This document shows positions 11,904 to 58,956 of a stretch of DNA of 64,000 bases, one piece after another. The translations under genes were made by a program, and so were the position numbers. The stretch covers positions 269 through 64,268 of the forward strand of contig JACRAM010000116.1 of assembly GCA_016213405.1 (NCBI GenBank), written 5' to 3'. This DNA comes from Bacteroidota bacterium (lineage in GTDB: Bacteria > Bacteroidota > Bacteroidia > Palsa-948). Position 1 is the first letter of the stretch. Every line of letters starts with the position of its first letter. Below the pieces are notes generated by a model. It saw only the letters and a list, made by a program, of their open reading frames with translations, ran no database searches and was not told the origin of the DNA.

Positions 11904-13091
11904 CTATTTTATGATTTCAATTACTTGTCCGGCACCAACTGTTCTTCCGCCCTCGCGGATAGCAAAACGCAATCCTTTATCCATCGCAACGGGCTGAATC
12001 AATTCAACCTGAATAGTTACGTTGTCGCCAGGCATTACCATTTCGCGTCCTTCAGGAAGAGTACAGGTTCCTGTTACGTCAGTTGTTCGCATGTAAAACT
12101 GAGGACGGTAATTATTATGGAACGGAGTATGACGTCCGCCTTCTTCTTTTTTCAGAACATAAACTTCAGCTTTGAAAATAGTATGTGGAGTGATAGAGCC
12201 CGGCTTGGCAAGAACCATTCCTCTCCAAATATCTTTTTTATCTACACCGCGGAGAAGAAGTCCAGCGTTATCTCCGGCTTGTCCTGAATCAAGTTCTTTT
12301 CTGAACATTTCAACTCCGGTGATAACAGTTTTTACTTTTTCTGCACGCATTCCAACGATTTCGATTTCTTCGCCTACTTTGCAAACACCTTGTTCGATTC
12401 TGCCGGTAGCAACCGTTCCGCGACCAGTGATTGAAAAAATATCTTCAACAGGCATAAGGAATGGTTTGTCAATTATACGAACGGGCATAGGAATGTATGA
12501 GTCAACAGCATCCATGAGTTCCATAATTTTTGGAACCCATTTTGCATCTTTATTCATTGCTCCAAGAGCAGATCCCTTGATGATAGGTGTGTTTTTTCCA
12601 TCGTAACCATAGAAAGTGAGCAGATCACGGATTTCGCCTTCAACAAGTTCGATAAGATCCGGATCGTCAACCATATCAACTTTATTCATGAACACAACAA
12701 CTTGCGGAACACCCACCTGACGTGCAAGAAGAATATGTTCGCGGGTTTGTGGCATGGGTCCGTCAGTAGCTGCAACAACGAGAATCGCTCCGTCCATCTG
12801 CGCAGCTCCTGTAACCATGTTCTTAACATAGTCTGCGTGACCAGGGCAGTCAACGTGTGCATAGTGGCGTTTGTCAGTTGAGTATTCTACGTGCGCAGTG
12901 TTGATAGTGATACCGCGTTCTTTTTCTTCGGGAGCATTATCAATAGATGCAAAGTCGCGCACAGATGCAAGACCTTTATCTGCAAGCACCATAGTGATTG
13001 CGGCAGTGAGAGTAGTTTTTCCGTGGTCAACGTGACCGATTGTTCCGATGTTAACGTGTGGTTTGGAACGGTCGAATTTTTCTTTTGCCAT
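11904..13091 (-). CDS. tuf: Elongation factor Tu
   Basis: 395 aa; [22 protein letters not shown] motifs. Confidence 0.98.
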
Positions 13092-13277
13092 AGTGAAAAG
13101 TGTTTAAAATATTAAACGGTTAATTCTGAATTAATAAATATTTTTTTAAGGGGTGCGAATATAGATATTATTTTCTCACACCCAATCAAAAAATACAATA
13201 TTTTTTCCTGAAATTATCGGCTAAGGAAGGAAGCGTTCACGAGCCAAAATTCCGGAAGGATATAATCAACTTTACTG

Positions 13278-13350
13278 AGCCAATGACCAGGATCGAACTG
13301 GTGACCTCGTCCTTACCATGGACGTGCTCTACCAACTGAGCTACATTGGC
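13278..13350 (-). tRNA. tRNA-Thr (anticodon GGT)
   Basis: Acceptor GCCAATG/CATTGGC, anticodon loop with GGT, T-loop GTTCGATCC. Confidence 0.85.
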
Positions 13351-13440
13351 AATTAACTCAGTTAATAGTTAATGGTTAATGGTTAATCGGGAGAACAATT
13401 AACTACTAACAGATAACAATTAACTTTTCAAAAGAACGAG

Positions 13441-13513
13441 AGCGGAAGACGGGACTCGAACCCGCAACATTCAGCTTGGAAGGCTGAAGCTCTACCAATT
13501 GAGCTACTTCCGC
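13441..13513 (-). tRNA. tRNA-Gly (anticodon TCC)
   Basis: Acceptor GCGGAAG/CTTCCGC, anticodon arm TCAGC-CTTCCAA-GCTGA, T-loop GTTCGAGTC. Confidence 0.85.
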
Positions 13514-13523
13514 AGATTTTCTG

Positions 13524-13606
13524 TGGGGAGACAAGGATTTGAACCTTGGAACTCCGAAGAGGACAGATTTACAGTCTGTTGCCTTTGACCACTTGGCTAT
13601 CTCCCC
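13524..13606 (-). tRNA. tRNA-Tyr (anticodon GTA), long variable arm
   Basis: Acceptor GGGGAGA/TCTCCCC, anticodon loop ACTGTAAATC with GTA, variable arm CCTCTTCGGAG, discriminator A. Confidence 0.85.
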
Positions 13607-13685
13607 AACTTATGTTCCAAGTTGAAAGTTGAAAGTTTCAAGTTGACCAACATGGAACAACAAACAGAAAACAAAGAACAAAAAA

Positions 13686-13758
<73 letters not shown>

Positions 13759-13817
13759 CGTATTTCATAGGGAAAACAATCATTTTTTCTCCCTACATTT
13801 TACGCATCAAAATTTTA

Positions 13818-13843
13818 ATTTAACATACAATTTAACATACATT
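13818..13843. repeat. Arm-type repeat A (two tandem 12-mers, tttaacatacaa tttaacatacat) just inside the island's left end
   Basis: atttaacatacaatttaacatacatt matches atttgacatacaatttagcatacatt at 39672-39697 at 24 of 26 positions, in the same orientation. Confidence 0.6.
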
Positions 13844-14095
13844 CAAATTTATATTATGTCAAGTATTTTATAACAAAGAACGTTTTTAAAAACAAGGGTG
13901 CGAAAGTAGAAAAATATTTTATATGTGCGTTTGCAATCAAAAGGTAATTAATTTCTTTTCCGTCTTCTCATAATCTCCAAGATATGTTCACTGTTAGCAC
14001 CAATGCAAAAAGACAAACCTCATCCACAAACTGCAACTGCGGTTTCGCAGAAAGGTGGTGAAACAATTACTTGGGCATGAAATCGGCTAACCTTT

Positions 14096-15556
14096 TCATG
14101 CAGCATCCTGAATTACTTTTTCAATGCCAGAAAAAGTCACTTTATCTCCTTCAATCATAAAAGGTATGCGGATGCGGTCAATGTTTTCTGCAATCCAGAC
14201 ATCTTTCATTTTCCAATCTCTAAAATTGTCATTAGAGATGATGTAACATTTATCTGACTTAGCTTTTTTAATAAAAAACTCATCGGCTTCCGTGCGTGAA
14301 GGAGCTTCGTGAAAGATGATTTGCTTATCGGCTATCATCTTGCTTAAAATGGTTACATCGGCTGATTTTCTTTTCAGACCAGGGTCACCAATGATGATGA
14401 TGTCTTTAAATTGCTGGCGATGCAATTCATCCACTACTAACTTAAGGTTGCTGCAATGGGGCTTATCATCTGCATTTTGGTTTTCTCTTTGTCTGTAATT
14501 TTCGTAAGCCACATTATTGCCGTCCACATAAATTTTCTGATTTGAAATCCTCCACACCTCAAAATATTCTCCGTCCGAATCAAAAATTCCGTATTGCTTG
14601 ATTTCATTTCCTTGTGTTAAGAAAGAACGGATTTCATCTTCGGTGTTTAATTTTTTCGTGAACCAATCCGGGAAAGTGCGGGTACTGTCCTCTTTTGTGA
14701 TAAACTTAAATTCTTCTTCCTTTTGATTCAGAAGTTCTTTCAATTTTTTAAGCGAAAGTTTTTTGCCGTTCTCCGCGCTCTTTAAAGCAATCATCATTAC
14801 AACCTGGTCGGAACTGTACATTCCTTTTGCTGACTTTTTAAGACCGACATAATGGTCGTATTCGTATTTGCTATGTATTTTCAAATGCTTTGCTTCCTGA
14901 TACTCTTTAATCTGCTCGAAGCCCATCTTAACAGCGTTGATGTAGTCCTCCGCGTAAGTAAATCCTTTGAGTTTCGCTTCGTCATAAGTTATCCTATCTG
15001 AAAATCCTAAGAAGAACGCTTTATCAAAGTCCCCGAAATCTTTAAACCCTTTTGCTGTGGCAAACTCGCATATCTTTATTGGCGTATCGTAGTCGCTCAA
15101 AATAAAATCCTGCGGTATCAACCCCTTGTTCTTTTCGCAACGCTCTTTGAACTTCTCATAAGAATCAAGGAATCCGAGTTTCTGCGCTTTGGCGTAAAGT
15201 GTTTTGTCCACAACTCCTGTCTTTTTACAATCCTGATATTCCTTGTAAGCGCTGATACCCGCTTTATGTGCGTCATAAAAACTTTCTGCATCGGGAAAGT
15301 CAGCTTTAACAGCATCCTCATAGTCCTCAAGCGATTTGAAATTATTGCTGTCAATGCGGTAAAGGACTTGGCTTTCGAGAAACAGAAATTCGGTTGGATG
15401 TTTTCCCTCTGAACTATTCTTTTCAGTTCGCAGAACAAATTTGACTTCATACTCCTGAAGCATCTTGATAAACCCTTTGATGTCTTTTACTCGTAAAGAT
15501 TTGAAGTCAGGAGTATCTTCAATCTCCACATAGTTGTACCTGTTTGTGCGTGCCAT
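14096..15556 (-). CDS. 486-aa protein with N-terminal GF-containing repeats (roughly 30 aa each) and a C-terminal NYN/Zc3h12a-like (PIN-fold) ribonuclease domain
   Basis: The C-terminal block IYVDGNNVAY...IIIGDPGLKRKSADVTILS...YIISNDNFRDW resembles the NYN RNase signature (v.DGsNVa). The N-terminus has repeated motifs such as DAHKAGISAYKEY, AKAQKLGFLDSYEKF, ATAKGFKDFGDFDKAFFLGF, AKLKGFTYAEDYINAVKMGFEQIKEY. Confidence 0.5.
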   Translation of the reverse strand: MARTNRYNYVEIEDTPDFKSLRVKDIKGFIKMLQEYEVKFVLRTEKNSSEGKHPTEFLFLESQVLYRIDSNNFKSLEDYEDAVKADFPDAESFYDAHKAGISAYKEYQDCKKTGVVDKTLYAKAQKLGFLDSYEKFKERCEKNKGLIPQDFILSDYDTPIKICEFATAKGFKDFGDFDKAFFLGFSDRITYDEAKLKGFTYAEDYINAVKMGFEQIKEYQEAKHLKIHSKYEYDHYVGLKKSAKGMYSSDQVVMMIALKSAENGKKLSLKKLKELLNQKEEEFKFITKEDSTRTFPDWFTKKLNTEDEIRSFLTQGNEIKQYGIFDSDGEYFEVWRISNQKIYVDGNNVAYENYRQRENQNADDKPHCSNLKLVVDELHRQQFKDIIIIGDPGLKRKSADVTILSKMIADKQIIFHEAPSRTEADEFFIKKAKSDKCYIISNDNFRDWKMKDVWIAENIDRIRIPFMIEGDKVTFSGIEKVIQDAA

Positions 15557-15600
15557 AGTGATATTGTTTTTGGTTGATGTATTTTTAGTAACGGAATATT

Positions 15601-16681
15601 CTACGAATTATTTTCTGCTATTTTGCTTTCGTCTGTTTCTGGCAAGTTCATCTCAAAATAGAAAAACGGATATGTCATTTTCATATCAATGCGTCTTTTG
15701 AGTTGTTCTTTTATTTCGTTTGCAACATACGGAAAAATAATGTTAATTTTCTCATAATAGTTTACCAGATTTCCTGCCGATGTAATTCCCAGACATAGTT
15801 TTGTTCCTATGTTTTTTGGAAACTGATTTCTTGCCTGACTGATATACATGCTTTCCTCAATGGCTTTTTGGAGCTTGCGAATGTGCGGATTCAATTTATC
15901 AGCATATAATTTTTCAATGTGTGGGGAATTTTCAGCAGAGAAAGAAATCTTTGAAAGTTCATCTGAAAATTCCTTTATCTGCGCTTTGAATGGAAGAAGG
16001 ACAGGTTTCAAATTATCCCTTGTGTATGTTTCATCTGGTTGTATGTCAAGTCAGCAAGCGGAGGAAAGTTCCAAAGAGGAATTTTGATGAAATCCGTTTC
16101 CATGTTTTCACGTGAATCAACTTGTCTGAACGAAAATATTTTTTCAACCTTCGTATCGAAAAGAAAAATGGTTGAGTTTGCAGCTACATAATCGGCAATC
16201 GAATTTATATACGGGTCTTCTCCTTTTGTTTCTTCGGAATAAAACCATCCTTCCTGCGCTTCAAAACCACCTTCCTCAATAAACGGCATCACCTCGTACA
16301 TCTTTATTCCTTTCAGCGTATTTTCTGTGTATTCTTTTAGGTTACTTTTGAAAAGCCGGATAAGGTTTTTAAACTTCTGGATAGCCAAAAGGGTTCTTTT
16401 GTCTTTGCCTTTTATATGCTGGGCTTTTTTCATGACAGGAAAAAGTCCGTCTATTTGTTTGTGGAATTGAACTGCAAACTCATCATTTTTATAAGTTTCC
16501 TTGTGCGCTTAAATAATCAGTTCATCTGTCCACCCCTCAAGTCCTCTATAAGTTACAACGGTATGTGCAGTCATGGAAATATATTTTACCGCATCTGCAA
16601 TCAGCACAAGCGGGCGAACATAGAGCGGCTCCGTGTAGTAATGGATTTTTGTATCGTTCCGATTGAAGAAAACAATTTTCA
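15601..16681 (-). pseudogene. Degraded paralog of the adjacent 365-aa gene, in three frame-disrupted fragments (16512-16681, 16008-16433, 15601-16011)
   Basis: Fragment translations MKIVFFNRNDTKIHYYTEPLYVRPLVLIADAVKY, ...FEAQEGWFYSEETKGEDPYINSIADYV... and ...LNPHIRKLQKAIEESMYISQ...LCLGITSAGNLVNYYEKINIIFPYVANEIKEQL... align to the N-terminus, middle and C-terminus of the 16679-17776 protein. An in-frame stop, a roughly 90-aa deletion and a frameshift at 16008-16011 separate the fragments. Confidence 0.65.
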
Positions 16682-17776
16682 TTGGGAGGAAACTTTAGGC
16701 GGGAGTTTGTGATAGATGAACGGCATGGAGGATTTGATGTCAATATTCTTGCCGAGTTTTTCAATTATCGCTTCTGCAACAAAGGGTAAAATCACTTCTT
16801 CCTTTTCCAGCAAACGTATTTGATTCTCTACACTTGTAATGCCCATCAAAATTTTTATGCGCTGCTCTGCTCCGTATCTGCTTTTTTGCTGCTGAACATA
16901 AATGTTTTCGTCAATCTTCTTTTGAATTTTTTCAAGATGCGGAGTAATGTTTAAATTCAAAATCGCCTGAACTTGAGTTAGTGAGTTCTCAAACGGAACG
17001 GCAGCAAGTTCTTTTTGAATTTTTTTATAATCCTGATGAAACGATTCAACAATTGGTTTCAGTTCATTCCGAACATTTTTCAGTTGGTCGTAATTAAGGT
17101 CGTGCAGGTGTGGAAACTCAAACAGTGGTGTTGAAAAGAAAAACGACTCTGCTGTGATTTCTCCTCCGTCTAATCTTGTGAAAGGGACTAACTGCTCAAT
17201 CACGTCATCTAAAATCAAATTTTGGTCGTACTCAAAAAAACTATCTACTATTTCTTTTATCAGCGGATCTTCTCCAACTGTTTCTTCCTTGTATTCTTTA
17301 TTATTCACCAGCATAAATGGAAATATTTCAAATTCATCCATCCCATCTCCTCGCGATACTTCTTCCTTTCTTGTCTTTACTGATTGCTCAAAGAACTGTA
17401 GAAGCGGGATGAGTTTATGTTGCTCCATAATATTTTCTAACCACTTTAGTACATCAGCCGCAACTTGTTTCATCAGCCGTTCCATTTTCTGATGAGCTAC
17501 TATCTGTACTTTATTTTTATTCTTTGTATTTCTTACTTGCTTTAACTTATCGTGAAATTTCACCCATTCCCCATTCCGTTGCTTATTAATTGTCTCATAC
17601 ATAATGCAACAAAATATTTCGCCCAAGTCCTGTTTGCAATGCCACATAATCATATATTCTGATATAAAACTGCTAATGGATACTTGGTTGGTATACATCA
17701 TTGCAATACGCAAATACACCGGCTCAGCAAAAGCATCGGCTTTTGTATTTGCTCGGTTGTAGATAACTAAATCCAT
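16679..17776 (-). CDS. Hypothetical protein, 365 aa, no recognisable domain (start taken at MDLVIYNRANTK)
   Basis: Long ORF with coding-like composition. A paralogous degraded copy lies immediately downstream. Start chosen by alignment with the paralog's N-terminus. Confidence 0.6.
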   Translation of the reverse strand: MDLVIYNRANTKADAFAEPVYLRIAMMYTNQVSISSFISEYMIMWHCKQDLGEIFCCIMYETINKQRNGEWVKFHDKLKQVRNTKNKNKVQIVAHQKMERLMKQVAADVLKWLENIMEQHKLIPLLQFFEQSVKTRKEEVSRGDGMDEFEIFPFMLVNNKEYKEETVGEDPLIKEIVDSFFEYDQNLILDDVIEQLVPFTRLDGGEITAESFFFSTPLFEFPHLHDLNYDQLKNVRNELKPIVESFHQDYKKIQKELAAVPFENSLTQVQAILNLNITPHLEKIQKKIDENIYVQQQKSRYGAEQRIKILMGITSVENQIRLLEKEEVILPFVAEAIIEKLGKNIDIKSSMPFIYHKLPPKVSSQ

Positions 17777-17912
17777 TTGGCGGTTCTGATTTTTGCAGGT
17801 ATTTGTCTCTATGGGAAAAGAAAAACAAAGCTCATCCAAAATACCTTTGCATCAAACTTTGAAACAAATTCTCCAACTCCCATTCACTTTCTTTGTGTTT
17901 GAGTTAAAGGGG

Positions 17913-18641
17913 TTATTCAGGTGCGTAATATTTTTTCAGCCACTTCGGATAGTTTGGAGCAGTGAAAATATTTTTTCCATTTCTCAGCTCTGCCATCGTT
18001 TCAAAATTCGTTGAGTTATCAATCAGGTAAGCGCTGGCTGATGCCTTTGCCGTTTTGGAAAAAAGTTTCAGCGATCTGAAATACCGCTGCTCAATCTTTT
18101 TATCATCCACATCGTGTCCGCCTTGCTTTACCCTCAGTTTAACCCGTTCAATGTTTAAATGCCAGTCGTTTGTAAATACAAAATAACAATAGGTTTTATA
18201 TCCTTTCTTTCTTGCTTGTTCCAGTAATTTGAGTTTTGAAGGATGGGATAAAACCGTTTCATAGCAAAACGATTGTTTGCTTTCAATAAGTTTTTCCGAG
18301 AGATACGAAGCAATAAAAGAAGCGATGTATGAATTCAATTCACCTTTTCGGATGTTCATTTTCAAAACACCGCCTTGAATATTTATTTTTTTGAGAAAAG
18401 ATTTATCCTGTATTTTTTTGAGAATACCCGATTGCCGGATGTGTTTTTTGAAGTCCTCATCCGAAACTTTTACCCGATAGGCATTAAAATGAAACCGAAG
18501 CGATTCAGAAAGTTTTTGTTCAATCTCATCCGCGTTCACATATATTTCGGTGTGAATGTAGGATTTGCTGCGTAGAAAATTAAAGAGATGGGTTTTTCCT
18601 GAGCCGTTAGGACCGGCAAACATTCTAAAACGCGGCTGCAT
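17913..18641 (-). CDS. P-loop NTPase, zeta-toxin/AAA_33-like (putative toxin kinase)
   Basis: Walker A FAGPNGSGKTHL. The C-terminal motif RVKLRVKQGGHDVDDKKIEQRY resembles the zeta-toxin family R..R...GGH.V....I..RY block. About 240 aa and preceded by a small gene. Confidence 0.45.
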   Translation of the reverse strand: MQPRFRMFAGPNGSGKTHLFNFLRSKSYIHTEIYVNADEIEQKLSESLRFHFNAYRVKVSDEDFKKHIRQSGILKKIQDKSFLKKINIQGGVLKMNIRKGELNSYIASFIASYLSEKLIESKQSFCYETVLSHPSKLKLLEQARKKGYKTYCYFVFTNDWHLNIERVKLRVKQGGHDVDDKKIEQRYFRSLKLFSKTAKASASAYLIDNSTNFETMAELRNGKNIFTAPNYPKWLKKYYAPE

Positions 18642-18645
18642 GTTT

Positions 18646-18825
18646 TCAGGATGCTTTTTTGTACTGACGCGACCTGCGTAAAACTTTAACCTTCTTATTC
18701 GGATAAATCAATTTCACTTCTCCGTTTTCAGAAATGGCAATAGGAAGGTTTTTCCGTGATGCTTTCCGTCTTGCTGATTTTGCTGCGCCTTTCAGCAGCT
18801 TTTTGAATTTTTCGTTTTCGCTCAT
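18646..18825 (-). CDS. Small basic protein (59 aa), possible antitoxin partner of the zeta-like NTPase
   Basis: ORF MSENEKFKKLLKGAAKSARRKASRKNLPIAISENGEVKLIYPNKKVKVLRRSRQYKKAS. It is below the track's length cutoff. Its stop lies 4 nt before the start codon of the downstream NTPase. Confidence 0.35.
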   Translation of the reverse strand: MSENEKFKKLLKGAAKSARRKASRKNLPIAISENGEVKLIYPNKKVKVLRRSRQYKKAS

Positions 18826-18865
18826 TGTAGTTATTTTTTACTAAGACAAATTTACAACAATATTT

Positions 18866-20035
18866 TCATCCAAAATACCTCTGCATCAAACTCTGAAACA
18901 AATTCTCCAACTCTCTTTCACTTTCTCTTTGCTTCTCACGCAGTTTTTCTACGCGCTCCACCAGCGAGGCGAATTTTTGTTGGAGTGAAAGAGGTGGAAG
19001 AATAATTTTTAAACTTCTTAAGGATTCTGTATTAATATTAAAATTACCAGCAGTAGTTTTTGCTCTTCGTAACATTTCCCCTCTGTATGAAGCGTATGAA
19101 AAATGGAATTGTAAAAAAACTGGAAGTACGATTGACAAACTTTGTAATCGCGCTCTTATTAAGTAAGACGCATAAATAAATTCTTCTTCTTTGCTAAATA
19201 TTGCACATCTTCCAATATATTCTGGATTCCCATTTGACCTTACAAAGAGAATATCTCCATTTTTTAATTTTAATTTTTCAATTTCATTCGGTTCGGGTTT
19301 GCAATATTTCAAATCGTCTTCGTTAATACTTCCTCCGATAATGTTTGGAATTCGTAAAACTGGCAAGAACCCTTTTTGAAATTTTGTTGAGCACTGAAGC
19401 GAAGTTCCATATTTTAGTCCTTCCACTAATTCTCCAAATGTTTTTATGTCCCATTCTTTCTCATTCCTCACCGGGTCTCCAAACATTTCAAGAAAGGCAG
19501 ATTGAAGAAATTGTTCTGTGAGTTGGTTTGCTTGTTTGCGCTTTTGCCGCGCTGCATCGGCTTGCTCAAGGATGCTGGCGATTTTTTGTTGGGTTTTTAA
19601 ATCGGGAACAGGAATCTCAATTCGAGATAATCCATCTGTATTAATATTTTGTTGAACTCCGCCTTTCTTATTACTTAAAATTTGTTTCCAGTAAAAATTA
19701 GAATGGGTAAAAGCACCAAAATATTTCGGATAGATTTTCTTTGTATCAAATCTTAACCTGATAAGATATGAAGCGAAAACTTCTTTAGAATTTTTACCAA
19801 AATAAATATGGGCTTTCCCAACAGAACCACTTCTTGCAATAATACAATCTCCGTCTTGAAGCAAATATCGTGGAACTTCTTTTTCATTTATTAAAACTCC
19901 AGGGACTGTTGCATAATCAACTTTTCCATATTCATCAATATCAGTAACGCGAATAAACCCAACTCCGTTCCTTTCTGGAATTGCACTACCTGTAAATCCA
20001 TAACGGATTTCGGATACTAATTCTCCTAATTTCAT
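18866..20035 (-). CDS. hsdS: Type I restriction-modification specificity subunit HsdS (two target-recognition domains)
   Basis: 389 aa with duplicated TRD architecture and conserved HsdS inter-TRD helices (LSLQQKFASLVERVEKLREKQRESERELENLFQSLMQRYF). Contiguous with hsdM. Confidence 0.9.
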   Translation of the reverse strand: MKLGELVSEIRYGFTGSAIPERNGVGFIRVTDIDEYGKVDYATVPGVLINEKEVPRYLLQDGDCIIARSGSVGKAHIYFGKNSKEVFASYLIRLRFDTKKIYPKYFGAFTHSNFYWKQILSNKKGGVQQNINTDGLSRIEIPVPDLKTQQKIASILEQADAARQKRKQANQLTEQFLQSAFLEMFGDPVRNEKEWDIKTFGELVEGLKYGTSLQCSTKFQKGFLPVLRIPNIIGGSINEDDLKYCKPEPNEIEKLKLKNGDILFVRSNGNPEYIGRCAIFSKEEEFIYASYLIRARLQSLSIVLPVFLQFHFSYASYRGEMLRRAKTTAGNFNINTESLRSLKIILPPLSLQQKFASLVERVEKLREKQRESERELENLFQSLMQRYFG

Positions 20036-21544
20036 TTACAAACTTTTCTTTATTCCTTTCACATAATCTGCTATTTCTTCTTCCAGCATTAAAATCTTAT
20101 CCATAATCTTTTCCGGCTTTTCGTATTCAACCACTTCATGCTTCACTTCCTTGTAGCGGGAAATGCTGAGGTCGTATTTATTTTTTCTGATTTCATCCTC
20201 TTTCACCAGCACCACATTCTTTCCTGTTTTGCGTTCAGGATATTTTTTCAGGATGTCAGAAATATCGTTTTCTGAAATCTTCTGGCGCTTATCGTCCAAT
20301 GAAAAACCATCAGCACTCATATCGTAAAACCAAACTTTGTCGGTTATTCCGCCCTTGGTGAAAATCAAAACTGCGGTACTTACTCCTGCATACGGTTTGA
20401 AAACGCCCGATGGCATGGAAATAATTCCTTCTAATTTGCATTTATCCACAAGTATTTGCCTCACTCCCTGATGCGCGTTGCTTGTGCCGAACAAAACGCC
20501 ATCGGGAACAATCACCACAGCGCGTCCGCCTGTTACCAGCAAGTCATAGATCAGTTCCACAAAAAGAAGTTCGGTCTTACTGGTTTTTGTGCTGAACCGT
20601 TCGTTCACATCGCTTTCATCAATGCTTCCCTTGAAAGGAGGGTTGGCGAGAATCACATCGTAACATTGTTTTTCTGAAAATTGTTTGGAGAGCGCATCGG
20701 CATATTTGAAATTTGGATTATCCACACCGTGAAGCATCAGGTTCATCGCACCCATACGCACCATCGTGGCATCAAAGTCAAATCCGGTAAGCGCACGGCT
20801 CTTTAGGAACTCATGCAATTTCGGGTTAGTGATCTTATCACCTATCAGATTATGCGCCTTGCCTTCTTCATCGTAAGTGAGAATATCGGGTGATGTGTTG
20901 CTCTCCAAAATATGTTCGTAAGCTGAGACCAGGAATCCGGCAGTACCCGCAGCAGGATCGCATATACGCTCGCCTATCTTCGGGTCAATGAGTTTGGTCA
21001 TCATGCGGATGATGTGACGCGGGGTGCGGAACTGCCCGTTTTTTCCGGCAGTAGAAAGTTGTCCGAGCAGGTATTCGTAGAGGTCGCCCTGCACATCAAT
21101 ATTCTGCTCGCTGATGTGCATGTCGTCAATAATCTTGACAGCTTCCTGCAAGAGCGATGCTTTGGGTATGCTGAACATGGCATCTTCCATGTGCTGAGTG
21201 AAGGAACTGGTTTCACTTCCGAGATTGCGTAGGAACTCAAACACGGTGTCGCGCACATGCCGGAGCATTTCATCGCCCGGCAACTGGCTCCAGTAACTCC
21301 AACGGCATTTTTCTTTGTCAATTTTTCTTCCTCCAACATCCATTTTTCCGATGAACACGGATTTGAAATCGGTCTTCCTTCGCTTGGCAGCAGCAGCGCG
21401 CGCATTGTCCATATCTTCCAGCCGTTTAAGGAAAATCAAATAACTCATCTGCTCTATGGCAGTAAGCGGATTGCTGATACCTCCGCTCCAGAAACGGTTC
21501 CAGAGGGCATCTACTTGGGATTTGAGGGCGGGGTTGGTGAGCAT
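20036..21544 (-). CDS. hsdM: Type I restriction-modification N6-adenine DNA methyltransferase HsdM
   Basis: 502 aa; HsdM N-terminal domain; SAM-binding DPAAGTAGFL; catalytic NPPF in ILANPPFKGS. Confidence 0.93.
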   Translation of the reverse strand: MLTNPALKSQVDALWNRFWSGGISNPLTAIEQMSYLIFLKRLEDMDNARAAAAKRRKTDFKSVFIGKMDVGGRKIDKEKCRWSYWSQLPGDEMLRHVRDTVFEFLRNLGSETSSFTQHMEDAMFSIPKASLLQEAVKIIDDMHISEQNIDVQGDLYEYLLGQLSTAGKNGQFRTPRHIIRMMTKLIDPKIGERICDPAAGTAGFLVSAYEHILESNTSPDILTYDEEGKAHNLIGDKITNPKLHEFLKSRALTGFDFDATMVRMGAMNLMLHGVDNPNFKYADALSKQFSEKQCYDVILANPPFKGSIDESDVNERFSTKTSKTELLFVELIYDLLVTGGRAVVIVPDGVLFGTSNAHQGVRQILVDKCKLEGIISMPSGVFKPYAGVSTAVLIFTKGGITDKVWFYDMSADGFSLDDKRQKISENDISDILKKYPERKTGKNVVLVKEDEIRKNKYDLSISRYKEVKHEVVEYEKPEKIMDKILMLEEEIADYVKGIKKSL

Positions 21545-21545
21545 A

Positions 21546-24500
21546 TTATCTGGTCAATGGGATTTTCTTAAAATCACCTTCATCTAAAAAGGCGAATTTT
21601 CTTTCAAATAACCCTGCAAGTTTCTTGTTTGCCGTAGCAAAAATAATCTGACGATTCTCATTAATAACAATCTCTCTTAAATAATCCAAAAACGAAAGAA
21701 TATTCATGTCATCCGTATAAGTTACCGGATCATCAAACAGTAGGATATTTGGAGCTTTGTTAATTTTTTTGTTCAGTGATAAAAATATTGAAAGGGCTAA
21801 TGCAGATCTTTGACCAGAACTAATTTTTGTTATTGGTCTATCTGTTTCACCACTAAGCAAATTTAAATACACTTTACCGTCTCTAAAAACAACGTCTTTA
21901 AATTCATAAGGAGAATGAATATTTGAAAATACATCCTGAATCTCTGAAAGATTTTTAGCAATAAAATCAGTCAATACTTTTTCCTCCGAATCTTTTTCCA
22001 AGATTTCTCCGATTACATCTAATGCATTCTTTAATCTTATAGTTTTAGGAATTAATCCTTCATTGGCTTTTAACGCTACTGATTTTATTTGTTCAGCTAA
22101 TTTATATTGAGTTAAAAGAGCTTGGTCATTTTTTATATTTAAAAGTAATGAAGAAATATTTTGAATTTTTAAACTAATTTCCATTATTTTTTCTTCAGGA
22201 GTCAATTCCAAATACTGCTTTATCTCGTTAAAACACTTTATAGCAAACTCAATAATTGACTTTCTTTCACTAAGGTGTAAATGGAATTCTGAATAATTAG
22301 GTCTGCTTTCAAGTGTGGTAACATAGCTCTTTAGTTTTTCATTCAGAGATTCAATCTTAGAAGTTAATATGGCAATCTCCTCATTTATTTTATTTGCATC
22401 ATTTTCAAGTAGTATTTTATAATTGCTTTGCAGAGTAATATCTTCAGGAATAAATTTCATTTCTGGAAATATCTCCGTGATCCTATTTTTTAATTGCTTG
22501 AAACTATCTTCATTGACCCCGTCATTACTCATTACGGCTTTAAGATTAACTAAATTGTCATAATCATTTTTACATTTTTCAAGATTCTCTATATCGCTAT
22601 TTATGTTTTTCATTATTATTTTTAATGAATCAGCCCCCCTGTTCGCTTTATATTGAAAGGCGGTAATTTTTTCAATCAGCAATACCTGATTTAATAAATA
22701 TTCTGTCGATATTATTATCTGAGTAGTGTTAGTTAAACTTTGATTTAATTTTTCCAATTTCATTGAATCTGCAAGTTCTGAAACCGCTCTATTAATTCTT
22801 TGAAACAATTCATCATGTGAAGCAAAATGTGTCTCGCATAAAGGGCAATCTGTTAATTCATTATCATGATGAAGATAATCCCTACCTTTTGCTTTAATCT
22901 CAACAATAATATTCTGAATAAAATTCAATTTCTCCTTTGAAGAAATTATTTCCAATTCTATCTTAGCTTTATCCTCCTTGCACTTATTTAATTCGTTTAA
23001 ATAATTCGCTTTATACTCTTGAAGTGTTCTCGCTTCATTTTCAAAAATGGATTTATCAATTTTTACTAATTGTTCAATTATCGCATTAAGAGTATTTATT
23101 TGTTTTGCGCGTTCATCTATCTTTACCCTAAGACCATCTACTTTAAAATATTCAGGATGAGCAAAATATTTTTCACTTTCAAGTAGTAACTGGTATTTTA
23201 AATCAATAGGCGCTTTTGTTTCAATTATTTTATTTTTCTCCTTAAGCATAATCTCAAAACTATTAAAAGCAGCGGAAAACTCTTGCTCTAAGAGCTCGAT
23301 CCTTTCTTTTTCTACAATCCAATCCTTCAAACAAACCAATTTGTATGCTGGAAGGAGTTGTAGCAGGCTATTAAGTAAATTTTGCACTTCAACAATTTCC
23401 TTTTCAATTTCTGAAATATTTAATAGTGAAAATTTGGGAATCTCCTTATTCCATTTATAGTCTTTACAAACAGTAACAAATGTTTTGTAAGATTCTTCAA
23501 TATTGAGATTTTGTTTTTCCTCGTTTATAGTTTTTTCTGCATTTTGTATTTGGAGTTTATTGTTTTCAATCTGAGCAAAATAATCCCTATGTATAGGATT
23601 AAGCCGATCTTTGAACCCATTTAATCTTCCCTTTATTCTGCCAAATTCAGAACCAAGAGCAATTCTTGAAAGATATTTTATTATGGCATTGCTGTCTGTA
23701 TTATTTTGAAAATTAAATGCTGCATCAGAATAATAGAAATTGTATCTACCAAAAGACTCCTGAAGCTGGTTGCCTCTTGAATAGTCATTTTCATACCAAA
23801 GCAAATCCCTTTCCCGATATTTAGCATTATCGCTCGGAGAATACTCGTCTTCAACTCGTTCCAGATTGTAAAATCCTCTAATGCTTCCCGCAGTTTCATT
23901 ATATGCAGGATTTCTAATGGATTTACCACACAACAACATTTCAATGGCTTCCAACAGCGAGGTCTTTCCAACACCATTTACACCATCTATCAAATTAACT
24001 TTTCCAAAAACATAGTTTCTTTCGCCAATTGGGTATTGCCGGTAGTTGTCGGTTAGCTTTATCTCATTTATATAGTTTAAATGTAATCCCTGTGAGTTTT
24101 GTTTTTCTGGCTGAACATATTCTTCCTCCTTTAAAACCTTTTCATTCACGAATCTATCGATGGCTTCTGTATACGGTTCGGCATTATATACTTCATTTAA
24201 ATCTACTGAATTAAGTTTCTTTACCCAATCAACAACAATATTTTTCTGAACTTCCTTTTCTGTTTTTTTATACTCGAAAAATTTCTTGAATTCCTCCGGC
24301 TTAAATAAATACTTCCTTGTTAAAATATCATTTTGCTCGATTATTTTTTTAGAAACAGGGTCATATGCATCTCGTAAAAATATTAAATAGTAGTTCCATT
24401 GTAAATAACTTGGATTATTATAATAATCGGAAACTAAATATTTTTCTTGATACTCGTTTAAATCCTTAGGGAGTGTTTCATCGTAATCAAAATAGAAAAC

Positions 24501-24614
24501 TGCTGCTGTTTTTTTGTCTGGCTGATATTCCGCCTTAAGTATCTTATGATGTGGCACTTCAATTATGTTTTTGAATTTATTGCCAATAATATTCTCAACT
24601 ATATCTTTATTCAT
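21546..24614 (-). CDS. SMC/Rad50(SbcC)-like ABC ATPase with a coiled coil and a CxxC zinc hook, plus an unknown N-terminal domain of about 200 aa. Embedded in the Type I R-M operon
   Basis: Walker A GVNGVGKTSLLEAIEMLLCG. Long E/K/L-rich coiled-coil regions flank DCPLCETHF (a Rad50/RloC-type hook). C-terminal ABC signature SSGQRSALALSIF, Walker B ILLFDDP, then a D-loop. Start taken at the internal Met (MNKDIVENIIG), 4 nt after the upstream gene. Confidence 0.7.
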   Translation of the reverse strand: MNKDIVENIIGNKFKNIIEVPHHKILKAEYQPDKKTAAVFYFDYDETLPKDLNEYQEKYLVSDYYNNPSYLQWNYYLIFLRDAYDPVSKKIIEQNDILTRKYLFKPEEFKKFFEYKKTEKEVQKNIVVDWVKKLNSVDLNEVYNAEPYTEAIDRFVNEKVLKEEEYVQPEKQNSQGLHLNYINEIKLTDNYRQYPIGERNYVFGKVNLIDGVNGVGKTSLLEAIEMLLCGKSIRNPAYNETAGSIRGFYNLERVEDEYSPSDNAKYRERDLLWYENDYSRGNQLQESFGRYNFYYSDAAFNFQNNTDSNAIIKYLSRIALGSEFGRIKGRLNGFKDRLNPIHRDYFAQIENNKLQIQNAEKTINEEKQNLNIEESYKTFVTVCKDYKWNKEIPKFSLLNISEIEKEIVEVQNLLNSLLQLLPAYKLVCLKDWIVEKERIELLEQEFSAAFNSFEIMLKEKNKIIETKAPIDLKYQLLLESEKYFAHPEYFKVDGLRVKIDERAKQINTLNAIIEQLVKIDKSIFENEARTLQEYKANYLNELNKCKEDKAKIELEIISSKEKLNFIQNIIVEIKAKGRDYLHHDNELTDCPLCETHFASHDELFQRINRAVSELADSMKLEKLNQSLTNTTQIIISTEYLLNQVLLIEKITAFQYKANRGADSLKIIMKNINSDIENLEKCKNDYDNLVNLKAVMSNDGVNEDSFKQLKNRITEIFPEMKFIPEDITLQSNYKILLENDANKINEEIAILTSKIESLNEKLKSYVTTLESRPNYSEFHLHLSERKSIIEFAIKCFNEIKQYLELTPEEKIMEISLKIQNISSLLLNIKNDQALLTQYKLAEQIKSVALKANEGLIPKTIRLKNALDVIGEILEKDSEEKVLTDFIAKNLSEIQDVFSNIHSPYEFKDVVFRDGKVYLNLLSGETDRPITKISSGQRSALALSIFLSLNKKINKAPNILLFDDPVTYTDDMNILSFLDYLREIVINENRQIIFATANKKLAGLFERKFAFLDEGDFKKIPLTR

Positions 24615-24618
24615 GATA

Positions 24619-26331
24619 TTATCCTTCTTTATTAATTGAATTTGTCGAATAGGCTGATGTGTCCGAAATAGATGGGTAATGTGAGCTAACACACGAAAAT
24701 GTGTTCTCGGTCATTGAAGTCTTTCGCCATACAACAATGCGAGAAAGTGATGGGTCTTGAAAAATATTTTTAATATCACTTAAAGCCTTATTTGCATACC
24801 CTTCACTTTTTTCACCTATATATGCTACGGTTGCTTTATCAATACCACAAATTAGATTATGTAAGTATGTAGGTGTGGCTTCAAACTTTACTTCATCAAT
24901 GAGTTTGCCTTTGAATGTATTAAGAATGGGAGGAAAATCATCTCCCCTGTTGATAAGATGCGTATTTAAATACTCGATAGCCTTTAGCTGATTTAATCTT
25001 TCACTTTCGCCTTCTTCGTCTTCAATAAACGTTGCTCGTTTAATTATCCAGTTCTCGTCCTCTTCAAAAGAATATAAATTGATTATTAAGTGCCATTTGC
25101 TTCCGATTGAATCTATCTTTCCATTACATAAATTAATTAGCCTTTCCTTGTCCACAAAACAAACATTGCTGTCTCTCAAGTAGGCAGAAGTACAACTTTG
25201 TCTATTCAGTAATTCAGTAAATCCATCATTTACAGACTCAATGGGGATAATATCTAAATTATTCCAACCGAATAGTTTTCGTACCTCTGGTTCCGTTTTT
25301 CTTAATTGGGCATTTGGCAAGCCACTTAGTATTGGTTTTTGGCATTGAATCAAATAGATTAATTCTTTTGAGCTCAGATAGAGTGAGTGTTTTTCATTTT
25401 TATTATTTAAATAATACAGACCTTTTGCATGATTATTAATGAATTTAGCATCGGAGTTAAAATCTATATGGTGGGTTTTAATGTGAATTCCGCTTCTGCT
25501 GAATTTCGCTATCAAAGGAGATAGAGCCAAAGTCGTTCCTTTCGCCCAATTTAAACATATCAAATCCTTTAATGAATAGTCTAATATTTTTTCTCTAAAT
25601 CGTTTGAATTCTGGGCTATTTGGTTTCGGATTAAGCTGTGGATTTAAGATAATATATGGATTATCTCTCCACTTATTCTCAAGTAAGCTATCTATATTTA
25701 CATGGGTCGAAAAATTCATAGCTTCCGAGCATATTAGAGAGAAGAGATAAATAGAATTTTCATTATTTCTTAAAACATAAATTTCATTTCCTTTTATGTA
25801 ATTATTTTTCTCCAAGTCATTTGTCCAAACACCCATGTGCTCAGTTTTAAATTGAATCAATACAAATAATTTATTATCGCATTTAAAAAGATAACATAAA
25901 GGGTCGAAGAAATTTCCATTTGCTGTTAGTAATGTTTCATCAAAATAGATGACAACTTCATCGCTTGTGTGTGTGCTTTTGAAACTCCTAAGCAAATCCT
26001 TGTTTATTGATTCGCATCCTATAGCGAATAATTTTCTGCTTGCAGGATGAAGCGTAGGTGTTGAAATAAGTTCAGATAGGACTGACCATGGGCAAGAATA
26101 TTCTGGTGTCATAGCAACAGAAACATCATTATCCTTAGCTAATTTAAAAAAGGCTTTAAATTTATTTTGTACTTCTGTTTGATTTGAATTTTGGAAACAT
26201 TGAGCAGTTGCCGTAAAATCTCCTTTATGTTGGTATAGTAGAATAGAATAGGGCGTTGTGCTATACTCTAATGCTTCTAAGTCTAAGTTATTAACTCCAA
26301 TATTTAGTCTATCTATAAATTTGAAGATCAT
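24619..26331 (-). CDS. Hypothetical 570-aa protein with no recognisable domain. Translationally coupled between hsdR and the SMC-like ATPase
   Basis: Long ORF. Its start overlaps the hsdR stop (ATGA) and its stop lies 4 nt before the ATPase start. No nuclease, phosphoesterase or P-loop motif was identified by eye. Confidence 0.6.
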   Translation of the reverse strand: MIFKFIDRLNIGVNNLDLEALEYSTTPYSILLYQHKGDFTATAQCFQNSNQTEVQNKFKAFFKLAKDNDVSVAMTPEYSCPWSVLSELISTPTLHPASRKLFAIGCESINKDLLRSFKSTHTSDEVVIYFDETLLTANGNFFDPLCYLFKCDNKLFVLIQFKTEHMGVWTNDLEKNNYIKGNEIYVLRNNENSIYLFSLICSEAMNFSTHVNIDSLLENKWRDNPYIILNPQLNPKPNSPEFKRFREKILDYSLKDLICLNWAKGTTLALSPLIAKFSRSGIHIKTHHIDFNSDAKFINNHAKGLYYLNNKNEKHSLYLSSKELIYLIQCQKPILSGLPNAQLRKTEPEVRKLFGWNNLDIIPIESVNDGFTELLNRQSCTSAYLRDSNVCFVDKERLINLCNGKIDSIGSKWHLIINLYSFEEDENWIIKRATFIEDEEGESERLNQLKAIEYLNTHLINRGDDFPPILNTFKGKLIDEVKFEATPTYLHNLICGIDKATVAYIGEKSEGYANKALSDIKNIFQDPSLSRIVVWRKTSMTENTFSCVSSHYPSISDTSAYSTNSINKEG

Positions 26332-29099
26332 TAGGCTACCAATTTCCTTGTTAACTCAACAAGTTGTTTTATTTCTTCTTCTGTAAATAATTTTTCCACC
26401 GCATTCATTCCAAAATTTGTAAATGGTGCTTCATATAGATCAGCTTCTTCCAGTTTCCGTTTCTGATAAAACACAGTTTGCACAGTTCGCAAAAAGCGGG
26501 TTTGGTCGGCATTGTAATTATGTTCCAGTATAAACGCATCAAACGCCTTGCGTACAATCTGCTCGTAGCTCGGCAAGGTTTCTAATTTCAGCACATGCTT
26601 TAAAAAGTCAACCAAACTTCCAACGCGCACACCAAACGCTTTCAGCATGTTGTCTTCGTTCAAAGTAATTTCATCCGTTCCAAGTTCAATTTCCAGAGTG
26701 CTTTCCAAAGAAATTAAATCATCTAATGTAACGGCTTCACCTTTTTTCAGTTTTTGTATCGCAGTATTTTTGCTTGCCAAATGCTCAATCTTTTCTTCCA
26801 CTTTCTTTTTGTATTCCTCCACCATCATTTTCTGTCCTTCCTTTCCTCCTTGTTTTACAATCACCCACTTGCGGGAATCAATCACATCATCCAAACCAAG
26901 TTCAACAATCAGAGAAGGTTTCTCACGCTTGTATTTCATCAGAGGGGAAAGGGCGGTCTTTGCTTCATCAATGTTTTTCAGTTGGGGCTGGGTCCAAAAC
27001 TTTGTGGAGAGAACGGCTTCACGGTAAGTAATTTTTTCCTGCACTTGCGGTAAATTCGGTGGAAGCAAATCCACATCTTCACGAATGGAGTTGATGAGCG
27101 TGGCAGTATCTTTCTTTTGCAGCATGTAAAGCCCGCAGCGTTCCATCTTGCTGGTAAAAAATGCTTCCGCCATATTCACATCGGGGACAAAACGCAGGAG
27201 CGGAGCCGCTTTCATTCTCATCAGTTCAATTTTTTGAGGCGTAAGGAATTTCCAGAAATCATCTTCCCATGTTTCGCGCACATCTTTGATGTTTTTTTTC
27301 ACAGTGAAAGAGTCAAGTGGAATCCGGGCAATGTAGGCACGGCACTCTTTCACGATGCGTTGAAAGTCCTCTCCGCTCTGGTCGCCAATTAAAATTTCCA
27401 ACTTGCTCAGTCGCGTATTGAAAATGGAAACAAGAATCGGAATCTGCTTTATGCCGTTCTCATCTTTGGGCATCATGTTGAAATGCTCAAAGTTTTCCCA
27501 GAAGTCAACAATGAGAAAATTATCTTTTTTATTTTCAGGAAGCCATTCTAAATGCTTACACGCTTCCAAACTCCTTGTTCCGCGCCCGATCATCTGCCAG
27601 AATTTTATCTGCGAGCCAACAGGTTTCATAAATGCAAGGTTCATCACTTCGGGAACATCCACACCCGTATCGAGCATATCTACTGAGATCGCAATGCGGG
27701 GCATATCCTGTTTCTTGAATTTTGCCAGTAAATCACTTGCGCGCTCCACACCGGATGTAATCACACGCGCAAGCTGCCCTTTGTGTTCGGGATACATTTC
27801 ATTGAAGGTTTCTTCCAAACGGATGGCGTGTTTCTGAGTAATAGCAAATATGATGGTCTTTGCAGGAAGCTGTCCTCCGGCATCCTTGTGGCAAACATCC
27901 ATGAATTCTTCCCACTGCCGGACAAGGGTATCCTTATTCGTTACCTTTTTTTCCAAATCTGTCCCTTCAAAGTTGATGTCTTCGGGATTGATGCCTCGTT
28001 CTTTCAGCGATTCCTGATCTGCTTCGGATAAATCCACTCCTTTTATTCCCTTCCGCTGAAATTTTGTTTGAGCGGAATACACATTGTAATCGGCAAGGTA
28101 TCCTTCCTTAACTGCATCATCATATTTATAAAGATAAGTTGGTGCAGTTCCATCACACTCAAAAAACCGGAAAGTATCTCGGTCAAGAAAATGCGCGGGG
28201 GTTGCCGTTAAGCCAATTTGAACCGCATCAAAGTAGGCAAGTACATCGGTGTATTTATTGTAAATGCTTCTATGGCACTCATCGGAAACAATCAAATCAA
28301 ATTCGGCAGGATTAAATTTTTCATAGCATAACTCCAGCGTTTGCAATGTGCTTACATACACGCGGGTGGTTTTATCAATATTGAAAGTGCGGATGCGGGT
28401 CCTTGCTTCGTTTGGCAAATGAACTTTGAAACCATCGGTCAATGCCTGGTCAACCAAACTGTCTCTGTCAGCAAGAAATAAAACTTTTTGCGCCTGCCGT
28501 GCTTGCAGGAAAACATCTATCAGAGCCATTATTGTTCTTGTCTTTCCGGTTCCGGTTGCCATCACGAGCAATGCCTTTCGCTTTTTTCTTTTTTCAACGG
28601 CTTCGGAAATCCTTCTGATAGCTTCAATTTGGTAGGAACGATTAACAATATTGTCCTTGATCTTTATTTCGTTGAGCGGAAGTTTGTTTTGTTTGAGGTG
28701 AAGTAGTCGTTCAAGATTCTCTTTAGAAAAAAATCCGGCAACTAATCTTTCAGGATATTGTTCCGTGTCCCAGAAAAATATTTCTTCCCCATTCGCCATG
28801 AAAGCAAAAGGGCGGAAGGATTGTTTTTTGGCGATTTCGGTTACATAACGAAGCACTTGCTCTTTGCCTACTCTTGCATCGCGCCTTGTTTTCTTGGCTT
28901 CAATTACTGCCAATACTTCACCGTTGCTCCTGAATAAACAATAATCAGTAATCCCGCTTTGCGGAGAAGCATCGTAACCTTCAACCGGAATTTCAAAGCC
29001 AACCGATGTGCGGTCAGCCAGGTTCCATCCCGCCTTGACCAGATCAGGGTCAATGAGGTTGTAACGGGTTTGGGATTCGTTGAAGGTGGAAATACTCAT
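26331..29099 (-). CDS. hsdR: Type I restriction enzyme R subunit HsdR
   Basis: 922 aa. N-terminal PD-(D/E)xK nuclease (YCLFRSNGEVLAVIEAKK). SF2 helicase Walker A LVMATGTGKT, DEAH-type box IVSDECHRS, and helicase C-terminal motifs. Confidence 0.93.
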   Translation of the reverse strand: MSISTFNESQTRYNLIDPDLVKAGWNLADRTSVGFEIPVEGYDASPQSGITDYCLFRSNGEVLAVIEAKKTRRDARVGKEQVLRYVTEIAKKQSFRPFAFMANGEEIFFWDTEQYPERLVAGFFSKENLERLLHLKQNKLPLNEIKIKDNIVNRSYQIEAIRRISEAVEKRKKRKALLVMATGTGKTRTIMALIDVFLQARQAQKVLFLADRDSLVDQALTDGFKVHLPNEARTRIRTFNIDKTTRVYVSTLQTLELCYEKFNPAEFDLIVSDECHRSIYNKYTDVLAYFDAVQIGLTATPAHFLDRDTFRFFECDGTAPTYLYKYDDAVKEGYLADYNVYSAQTKFQRKGIKGVDLSEADQESLKERGINPEDINFEGTDLEKKVTNKDTLVRQWEEFMDVCHKDAGGQLPAKTIIFAITQKHAIRLEETFNEMYPEHKGQLARVITSGVERASDLLAKFKKQDMPRIAISVDMLDTGVDVPEVMNLAFMKPVGSQIKFWQMIGRGTRSLEACKHLEWLPENKKDNFLIVDFWENFEHFNMMPKDENGIKQIPILVSIFNTRLSKLEILIGDQSGEDFQRIVKECRAYIARIPLDSFTVKKNIKDVRETWEDDFWKFLTPQKIELMRMKAAPLLRFVPDVNMAEAFFTSKMERCGLYMLQKKDTATLINSIREDVDLLPPNLPQVQEKITYREAVLSTKFWTQPQLKNIDEAKTALSPLMKYKREKPSLIVELGLDDVIDSRKWVIVKQGGKEGQKMMVEEYKKKVEEKIEHLASKNTAIQKLKKGEAVTLDDLISLESTLEIELGTDEITLNEDNMLKAFGVRVGSLVDFLKHVLKLETLPSYEQIVRKAFDAFILEHNYNADQTRFLRTVQTVFYQKRKLEEADLYEAPFTNFGMNAVEKLFTEEEIKQLVELTRKLVA

Positions 29100-52081: not shown

Positions 52082-52243
52082 ACTACTGAAAACGCAATGC
52101 TTAGAATTTAGTTCACAAATATACAAAGAAAAAAATGAGCGGAATTCACTAATACGGATTTTGTAAACTGGCTGTTGAAATGGTAATTGACAGCAGTTCA
52201 CCAATTATAAAAAGCATAACTTAGCATAGAAAATTATTGTTTA

Positions 52244-53047: not shown

Positions 53048-53178
53048 TTTTTATAAATGTTGCTCTGTCGTGCAATGAAAAATGAGTGACATCTTGCACC
53101 TTTGCAGATTTTTATGTATAATTTTGTCCAAGCCAGATGTTCTAATTGATGCTTAAACACTCATTGGTATAAACCCTC

Positions 53179-54816: not shown

Positions 54817-54822
54817 ATAATT

Positions 54823-56799: not shown

Positions 56800-56910
56800 G
56801 GAATTAATATTCCAATACGGCTGCAAAATTAGATTTGTCTATTGCAGACGAAGAATATCAAAAAGTGCTAATTTCTTTCAGAAAAATATTCGTAATAACA
56901 CATCTAAATT

Positions 56911-58953: not shown

Positions 58954-58956
58954 CAT

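Follow-up and report, generated by a model that had tools for sequence, protein, structure and literature searches.

The window analysed here is a 64,000-nucleotide stretch of a Bacteroidota contig (GenBank assembly GCA_016213405.1, contig JACRAM010000116.1, positions 269 to 64,268 of the forward strand). A gene at positions 14096..15556 encodes a protein, here called the repeat-NYN protein, that is a plausibly catalytic NYN RNase and has an accessory architecture new to such enzymes. Across its family, the NYN gene is usually found in an operon with a fast-diversifying partner gene of variable copy number. Judged by its sequence, the gene product is probably a cytoplasmic, four-part, metal-dependent NYN endoribonuclease.

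Domain layout and nuclease active site

The structure of the repeat-NYN protein was modelled by AlphaFold2 on a full-length family alignment of 30 sequences (A1). The model had a mean predicted local distance difference test score (pLDDT) of 85.4 and a predicted template modelling score (pTM) of 0.61, and it was divided into four parts. The gene and its parts are:

14096..15556, minus strand: gene of the repeat-NYN protein, 486 amino acids (aa); a listed open reading frame (ORF) with an exact public match, MBI4931826.1
15341..15508, minus strand: N-terminal small alpha/beta domain, aa 17-72 (AlphaFold2 strands 19-22, 56-61 and 64-69; helix 26-35)
14813..15334, minus strand: about 11 tandem 14-residue repeats, aa 75-248 (autocorrelation, AlphaFold2 helices, alignment)
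14549..14812, minus strand: middle mixed domain, aa 249-336, 88 aa (AlphaFold2 secondary structure, helix-strand-helix ... helix-strand-strand)
14099..14548, minus strand: Zc3h12a-type NYN (PIN-like) nuclease domain, aa 337-486 (Pfam PF11977, Foldseek, invariant residues)

MBI4931826.1 has the locus tag HY841_13775 and the NCBI label "hypothetical protein", and lies on a Bacteroidetes metagenome-assembled genome (MAG) contig of 187 kb. An NCBIfam search of the protein returned nothing.

The C-terminal part matched Pfam RNase_Zc3h12a (PF11977) at aa 340-474 with E=6.6e-15 (55.6 bits, cut-off 23), and PF11977 also matched 30 of the 30 aligned family members. The top Foldseek matches in the PDB were the nuclease domains of ZC3H12B/C, MCPIP1/Regnase-1 and KHNYN (E 4e-8 to 4e-6). 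For the entries 6sjd, 7ndk, 3v33 and 8wzc (E 4e-8 to 3e-6; 4e-8 to 8e-7 for the first three), the root-mean-square deviation (rmsd) was 2.5-4 Å over ~140-150 columns, with a target template modelling (TM) score of 0.64-0.73. Model pLDDT was 80-94 across most of the domain. The original prediction, made from the letters alone, had placed a Zc3h12a-type NYN/PIN nuclease at the C-terminus, and this was borne out by a family match far above chance, by the fold matches and by intact acidic residues. The motifs it had quoted are present in the 486-aa protein: IYVDGNNVAY at aa 342-351, IIIGDPGLKRKSAD at aa 387-400 and YIISNDNFRDW at aa 438-448.

Invariant residues of the NYN domain in the 30-member alignment were D345, N348, D391, D425, N442 and D443, and position 447 was always D or E. 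The acidic active site of MCPIP1 is formed by D141, D225, D226, D244 and D248 (PMC5499597). An alignment to ZC3H12C, based on hidden Markov models, equated D345, N348, D425, D443 and D/E447 with D141, N144, D226, D244 and D248 of MCPIP1, respectively. Four of the five catalytic Asp positions of MCPIP1 are kept, and the D225 equivalent is an invariant Ala. The second difference from MCPIP1 is the extra invariant D391, a plausible replacement for the missing Asp. Given this residue correspondence, the active site appears to be catalytically competent.

With the eukaryotic Zc3h12a group, that is Zc3h12a/Regnase-1 (MCPIP1), ZC3H12B/C and KHNYN/N4BP1, the repeat-NYN protein shares PF11977, the PIN-like fold and the catalytic motifs D-G-S/N-N-V-A, x-D-E-F and S-N-D-x-[FY]-R-D. 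In contrast to this group, it has no CCCH zinc finger, KH or ubiquitin-binding domain. The NYN domain reaches to the end of the protein at aa 486, and neither a zinc-finger Pfam match nor an invariant Cys/His was found. Its N-terminal 336 aa are unrelated to those of the eukaryotic proteins, and it is bacterial and encoded in an operon. The protein belongs to the bacterial RNase_Zc3h12a branch, the members of which have their function listed as unknown (PMC5499597). In the searchable literature, we found no description of the 14-residue-repeat architecture or of a linked partner array.

BLOSUM62 autocorrelation over aa 71-250, with 1000 shuffles, peaked at lag 14 (z=7.2), followed by harmonics at lags 28 (z=3.6) and 42 (z=3.2). 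A period of ~30 aa was ruled out, with z=0.4 at lag 30. The original prediction had described repeats of ~30 aa throughout the N-terminal 330 aa. The repeats do exist, but their period is 14 aa, they are confined to aa 75-248 and they number about 11. Eight of the units fit the canonical 14-residue pattern x-x-[DE]-Y-x-x-A-x-K-x-G-F-x-x. In the AlphaFold2 model, each unit is a single helix of 8-9 residues, with starts at 76, 90, 104 and 118 and at 174, 188, 202, 216 and 230.

The predictor had not recognised the repeat type, and Pfam likewise gave no match on it, neither in the repeat-NYN family nor in its other carriers. Long, regular arrays of many 14-residue units are formed in the unrelated proteins P0109, P0121, P0080, P0139, P0097 and P0123. 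Some carriers are secreted (a signal peptide is present in both sequences that were read, together with an SH3_3 domain in one of them), others are membrane-anchored with P/Q/G-rich tails, and the Asgard proteins P0109 and P0121 (Candidatus Kariarchaeaceae) end in a RING finger. Because the unit also occurs in these secreted, membrane-anchored and RING-finger proteins, it looks more like a general scaffold than like a dedicated RNA-binding repeat.

The repeats are the best-conserved part of the protein, as revealed by majority-residue frequencies in the family alignment: 0.66 in the repeats (0.69 at aa 155-246), 0.64 in the NYN domain, 0.61 in the middle domain and 0.49 in the N-terminal alpha/beta domain, the least conserved part. 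This argues against a variable sensor and makes the suggested sensor role of the repeats doubtful; the fast-evolving component is the partner. For the middle domain, neither a Pfam nor a PDB sequence match was found. The order of its predicted elements would be compatible with a winged-helix-like fold.

The partner-gene array and the family

The first sign of an array came from tandem, same-strand genes of ~350 aa without a Pfam match, which preceded the NYN gene (five in locus L005, two in L003). These genes were homologous to each other and to the window ORF 16679..17839 (BLASTP E 1e-14 to 1e-31). Linkage was scored with an iterated partner profile, using as denominator the 48 GTDB loci with at least 1.2 kb of upstream sequence. 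In 38 of them (79%), a same-strand partner array was found directly upstream of the NYN gene, which was the last gene. There was one partner copy in 23 loci, and there were two copies in 7, three in 5 and five in 3. The median gap between the last partner stop and the NYN start was 16 nt, with overlaps down to -7. The linkage held across NYN identities of 28-76%. Among the metagenome contigs found by the partner profile, both that were long enough had NYN downstream of the partner(s). A word-indexed search for the partner recovered only 8 homologues. The RNase had been predicted to be a standalone protein, which is wrong for most of the family: its gene typically ends a chromosomal operon with 1-5 partner paralogues.

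Two partner copies were found in the window:

16679..17776, minus strand: intact partner gene, 365 aa, 100% match to P0033 (HY841_13795)
15601..16682, minus strand: decayed partner copy 2, with an ATG at 16682 that shares an ATGA overlap with the copy 1 stop

An in-frame stop at 16509-16511 and a frameshift near 16011-16050 interrupt the decayed copy, whose three pieces align to positions 1-57, 60-219 and 218-347 of the partner profile. Judging from the numbering between HY841_13775 (NYN) and HY841_13795 (partner), three NCBI locus tags seem to be spread across these pieces.

Sequence divergence is much faster in the partner than in the RNase. The best partner pair was 42% identical at an NYN identity of 70% and 24% identical at an NYN identity of 48%, and at 31% NYN identity most partners could not be aligned. 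Paralogues within one locus were 22-54% identical. No Pfam family matched the partner consistently, and searches with a PDB sequence profile and with Foldseek against the PDB and BFVD gave no significant match. A weak AcrIIC4 profile match (E about 0.01), spanning 80 residues of helix, was put down to chance. Near-invariant residues are a basic K-x-K(-H-K) motif, a Pro, an Arg and a Gly, with no obvious catalytic set among the conserved positions. Array copies from the Chitinophagia and Flavobacteriia clades all carry the C-terminal tail [RK]-K-x-[IL]-x-[IVL]-D, which is absent from the clade of the window and may be a docking or processing motif. Partner genes with this tail are:

L049, 7590-9979
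L053, 1534-9895
L055, 2057-4397
L051
L063

In L001, L008 and L018, three of the loci that lack an adjacent partner, an upstream gene of ~478 aa was considered as an alternative partner. It was rejected as an unrelated lipoprotein serine hydrolase, which carries a lipobox and the motif GFSGG.

A word-indexed search for the RNase itself gave 32 proteins from Bacteroidota MAGs, nearly all of ~480 aa and down to 36% identity. Exhaustive phmmer searching with aa 1-335 gave 171 cluster representatives at E<=1e-3, most of them 450-480 aa long. The GTDB scan revealed 55 NYN loci among 185,579 species genomes. Their distribution is sporadic and confined to Bacteroidota, with representatives in Bacteroidales, Chitinophagaceae, Flavobacterium, Sphingobacteriales and Cytophagales. 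Among the hosts, those in culture are Flavobacterium sp. SM2513, Flavobacterium sp. RSB2_4_14 and Parapedobacter flavus CGMCC 1.10938. The sole non-Bacteroidota label belongs to L054 (contig DYRY01000068.1, with an unusually long NYN ORF of ~639 codons from stop to stop), from a MAG labelled Anaeromyxobacter dehalogenans, which is probably a binning error.

Two NYN modules were found in one genome twice, namely L045 and L063 in a Catalimonadaceae MAG and L026 and L062 in a Bacteroidales MAG. L026 and L062 have two partners each. L063 has partners, one copy of which is also downstream of the NYN gene, and none were detected for L045.

Every family variant examined, whether it had fewer repeats or a longer sequence, retained the NYN domain. 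Effector swapping was rejected, as only NYN-less forms were found and none with a different effector. About ten cluster representatives of 365-407 aa consist of the N-terminal domain, the repeats and the middle domain only. One of them, P0104 (L069, 3570-4766), is internal to its contig and has neither a partner nor an NYN gene nearby. The N-terminal module is an autonomous unit, because such NYN-less homologues occur alone.

Genomic neighbourhoods

In the window, the NYN gene abuts a downstream cluster of tRNA-Thr/Tyr/Gly/Thr, tuf and tRNA-Trp, beyond which the ORFs are putatively nusG, rplKAJL and rpoBC, as read from their order and sizes. The upstream flank has a Zeta-like kinase, followed by genes of a type I restriction-modification (R-M) system, HsdS, HsdM and HsdR (operon 18866-29099). 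Features of this flank, and defence or toxin-antitoxin (TA) neighbours at the window locus and at three others, are:

17913-18641, minus strand: Zeta-toxin-like P-loop kinase, 242 aa (Pfam Zeta_toxin E=2e-9), between hsdS and the partner gene
21546-26331, minus strand: Lamassu-like pair between hsdM and hsdR, with an LmuB-type SMC ATPase of 1048 aa (PADLOC LmuB E=7.6e-32)
Window: type I R-M and LmuB-like gene
L005: MmeI-type R-M
L003: SIR2_2 and DUF87
L008: HEPN_AbiV and PemK

The Zeta-toxin-like kinase had no obvious antitoxin ORF and no PADLOC match. A 570-aa protein, encoded upstream of the LmuB-like gene and overlapping it, had neither a Pfam nor a PADLOC match and could be an unrecognised LmuA-type effector. 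The GC content was 0.28-0.31 at window positions 52001-60000, markedly AT-rich compared with 0.36-0.45 elsewhere in the window.

The flanks differ between loci. Defence or TA genes were present within 10 kb in 4 of the 12 contexts labelled with Pfam, and the remainder were metabolic or housekeeping. The predicted placement in a defence island thus holds for this window, with its type I R-M system, LmuB-like ATPase and Zeta-like kinase, but does not appear to extend across the family, where the flanks are mostly metabolic. PEPCK lies directly downstream of NYN in L037, L038 and L057 (Chitinophagaceae). In L070, from a Bacteroidota MAG, PEPCK (245-1840) is ~4.5 kb upstream of the array, and the NYN protein P0003 is 74% identical to that of the window.

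The tRNA adjacency was not recurrent: any tRNA was found within 10 kb in 3 of 52 loci, and adjacent in none. The tRNA/tuf cluster was therefore ruled out as a functional or integration clue. An Rfam search of positions 13000-19000 returned only the four tRNAs, and a promoter and terminator scan performed no better than on shuffled sequence. No consistent rRNA or tRNA housekeeping context was seen across the homologues and the NYN match is significant, and on these two points the original idea of an immunity protein is not contradicted.

Possible roles of the module

Our tentatively preferred reading is an RNA-targeting conflict module with two components, the RNase and the partners that gate or direct it. 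The partner paralogues would be interchangeable regulatory or specificity subunits, which either restrain the RNase or aim it at particular RNAs. The repeats, as a rigid solenoid of about eleven single-helix units, would form together with the middle domain a fixed platform for a conserved ligand. The ligand might be a surface common to the partners, a feature of an RNA or the protein's own nuclease domain. In its logic the module would resemble eukaryotic NYN nucleases that are guided by an adaptor, as KHNYN is by ZAP. KHNYN needs ZAP, and by analogy the repeat-NYN protein may depend on a separate partner protein. The arms-race character of this proposal is based on the sporadic distribution, the variable location, the expansion and decay of paralogues, and the gap in evolutionary rate between partner and RNase. 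The data show the domain composition, the intact catalytic residues, the operon linkage, and the copy-number variation and divergence rate of the partner; RNase activity, a physical interaction between partner and RNase, and any role in phage defence or addiction are what we infer. The only NYN candidate that we found in the literature on defence screens is HEC-09, likewise a bacterial NYN-domain protein beside defence genes (bioRxiv 10.1101/2024.01.29.577857). HEC-09 is a MARF1-like candidate embedded in Hachiman and showed no defence against the phages tested (bioRxiv 10.1101/2024.01.29.577857). It differs from the repeat-NYN protein in its NYN subfamily and N-terminal domain, and it has no partner array.

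Several observations weigh against a conflict module. In PADLOC-DB v2, the repeat-NYN protein had no match at E<=1, and the partner had only scattered single-member matches at E around 0.01. No relatives were found in IMG/VR, the INPHARED phages or the PLSDB plasmids. The nearest two ORFs on each side of 46 loci fell into 183 Pfam families, mostly metabolic or housekeeping, with aminopeptidase P, PEPCK and MsrB as the most frequent. Among 146 flank proteins there were 13 PADLOC families (E<=1e-10), a raw count without a random-gene baseline. Stable synteny in some sub-clades, as with PEPCK, suggests long-term vertical retention. The N-terminal module may serve a function unrelated to RNA cleavage, given its NYN-less homologues, and the partner model is of moderate confidence (pLDDT 73, pTM 0.69). 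Ten of the 48 loci, including the clade P0015-P0020, have no detectable adjacent partner, as judged from adjacent sequence in genomes that are mostly MAGs. Because these loci retain every catalytic residue, the partner is not strictly required and cannot be an obligatory antitoxin.

The main alternative, possible if somewhat unlikely, is that the protein is an accessory RNA-processing or turnover enzyme. The repeats and middle domain would then recognise a structured cellular RNA, much as pentatricopeptide repeats serve the nuclease of protein-only RNase P (PRORP), an enzyme of tRNA 5' maturation, and the choice of substrate would be set by the partners, acting as RNA-binding adaptors or chaperones. 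The architecture does parallel PRORP: in both, helical repeats at the N-terminus are followed by a connecting domain and, at the C-terminus, by an NYN-type metallonuclease, with a similar length of ~470-490 aa, and PRORP was matched by Foldseek (E 1e-5 to 1e-3) and weakly by Pfam in 3 of 30 members. The strong conservation of the repeats would fit a conserved cellular ligand. The mostly housekeeping or metabolic flanks, the near-invariant basic motif and conserved Arg of the partners, and the tRNA-tuf cluster next to the NYN gene in the window point the same way. However, the repeats are 14-residue single helices, not the 35-residue hairpins of pentatricopeptide repeats (PPR), and neither PPR nor other known RNA-binding Pfam domains were matched. 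The invariant Cys/His of a PRORP-type zinc site is also lacking, and a full-length superposition on PRORP was meaningless (rmsd about 22 Å). The tRNA context is not recurrent, a core function would not be distributed anywhere near so sporadically, and RNA binding is implausible for the repeat in secreted and membrane proteins. Fast divergence and copy-number change of the partner would also be unusual for housekeeping adaptors.

A TA or immunity pair, with the RNase as growth-arresting toxin and the upstream partners as duplicated and diversified protein antitoxins, seems unlikely. PIN-like nucleases are classic TA toxins (PMC5499597), and a non-enzymatic, fast-evolving partner encoded upstream with tight translational coupling resembles the gene order of type II TA systems. 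Type II systems with a PIN-like toxin differ in having an obligatory small DNA-binding antitoxin, whereas the partner has ~350 aa, no Pfam domain and no DNA-binding domain. The catalytically intact RNases without an adjacent partner and the lack of plasmid or phage carriage also speak against such a pair. We know of no precedent for a single toxin with as many as five antitoxins in an array. For a standalone abortive-infection RNase, in which the N-terminal repeats would sense infection directly and the partner genes would be bystanders, the defence island of the window and the partner-less clade with intact catalytic residues can be cited. This is nevertheless quite improbable: most loci are tightly linked to same-strand arrays over a wide range of NYN identities, the repeats are the best-conserved part and not a variable sensor, and the defence context does not appear to be general. 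Highly improbable is an exported polymorphic toxin, delivered to neighbours by, for example, a type VI or type IX secretion system (T6SS, T9SS), with the array as immunity genes. The nuclease is indeed C-terminal, after repeats, and stands beside an array of diversified paralogues, but the array is upstream of it, and immunity genes are usually downstream of the toxin gene. There is no signal peptide, Por_Secre_tail or trafficking domain of the PAAR, Rhs or VgrG type, and none of the 12 annotated contexts had secretion-system genes, T6SS or T9SS cargo genes included. Four of 30 members weakly match Tli3, a T6SS immunity family, but this match is below threshold and lies inside the RNase protein itself, in its N-terminal region. 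It was judged to be due to chance, as was a sub-threshold match of the N-terminal region to pyocin AP41.

The conflict module that we favour could be taken one step further, into a more novel but doubtful reading. It would be an unrecognised RNA-targeting immune module of Bacteroidota, an NYN RNase armed or aimed by one to five diversifying adaptors, each for a different invader cue, with the solenoid as docking platform.

The eukaryotic relatives Regnase-1, KHNYN and N4BP1 are central antiviral and immune-regulatory RNases, and the function of the bacterial Zc3h12a-type proteins is unknown (PMC5499597). The repeat-NYN family offers a concrete handle on the latter: a fixed four-domain RNase, a linked partner with arms-race-like evolution, and cultured hosts. 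It also exposes two unannotated modules, the 14-residue single-helix repeat and a ~350-aa partner without a detectable structural match. If the adaptor-guided model is false, a well-known nuclease still gains a new architecture in this family. If it is true, the family would be a bacterial counterpart of ZAP-KHNYN-type nucleases, and the list of immune mechanisms common to bacteria and eukaryotes would grow.

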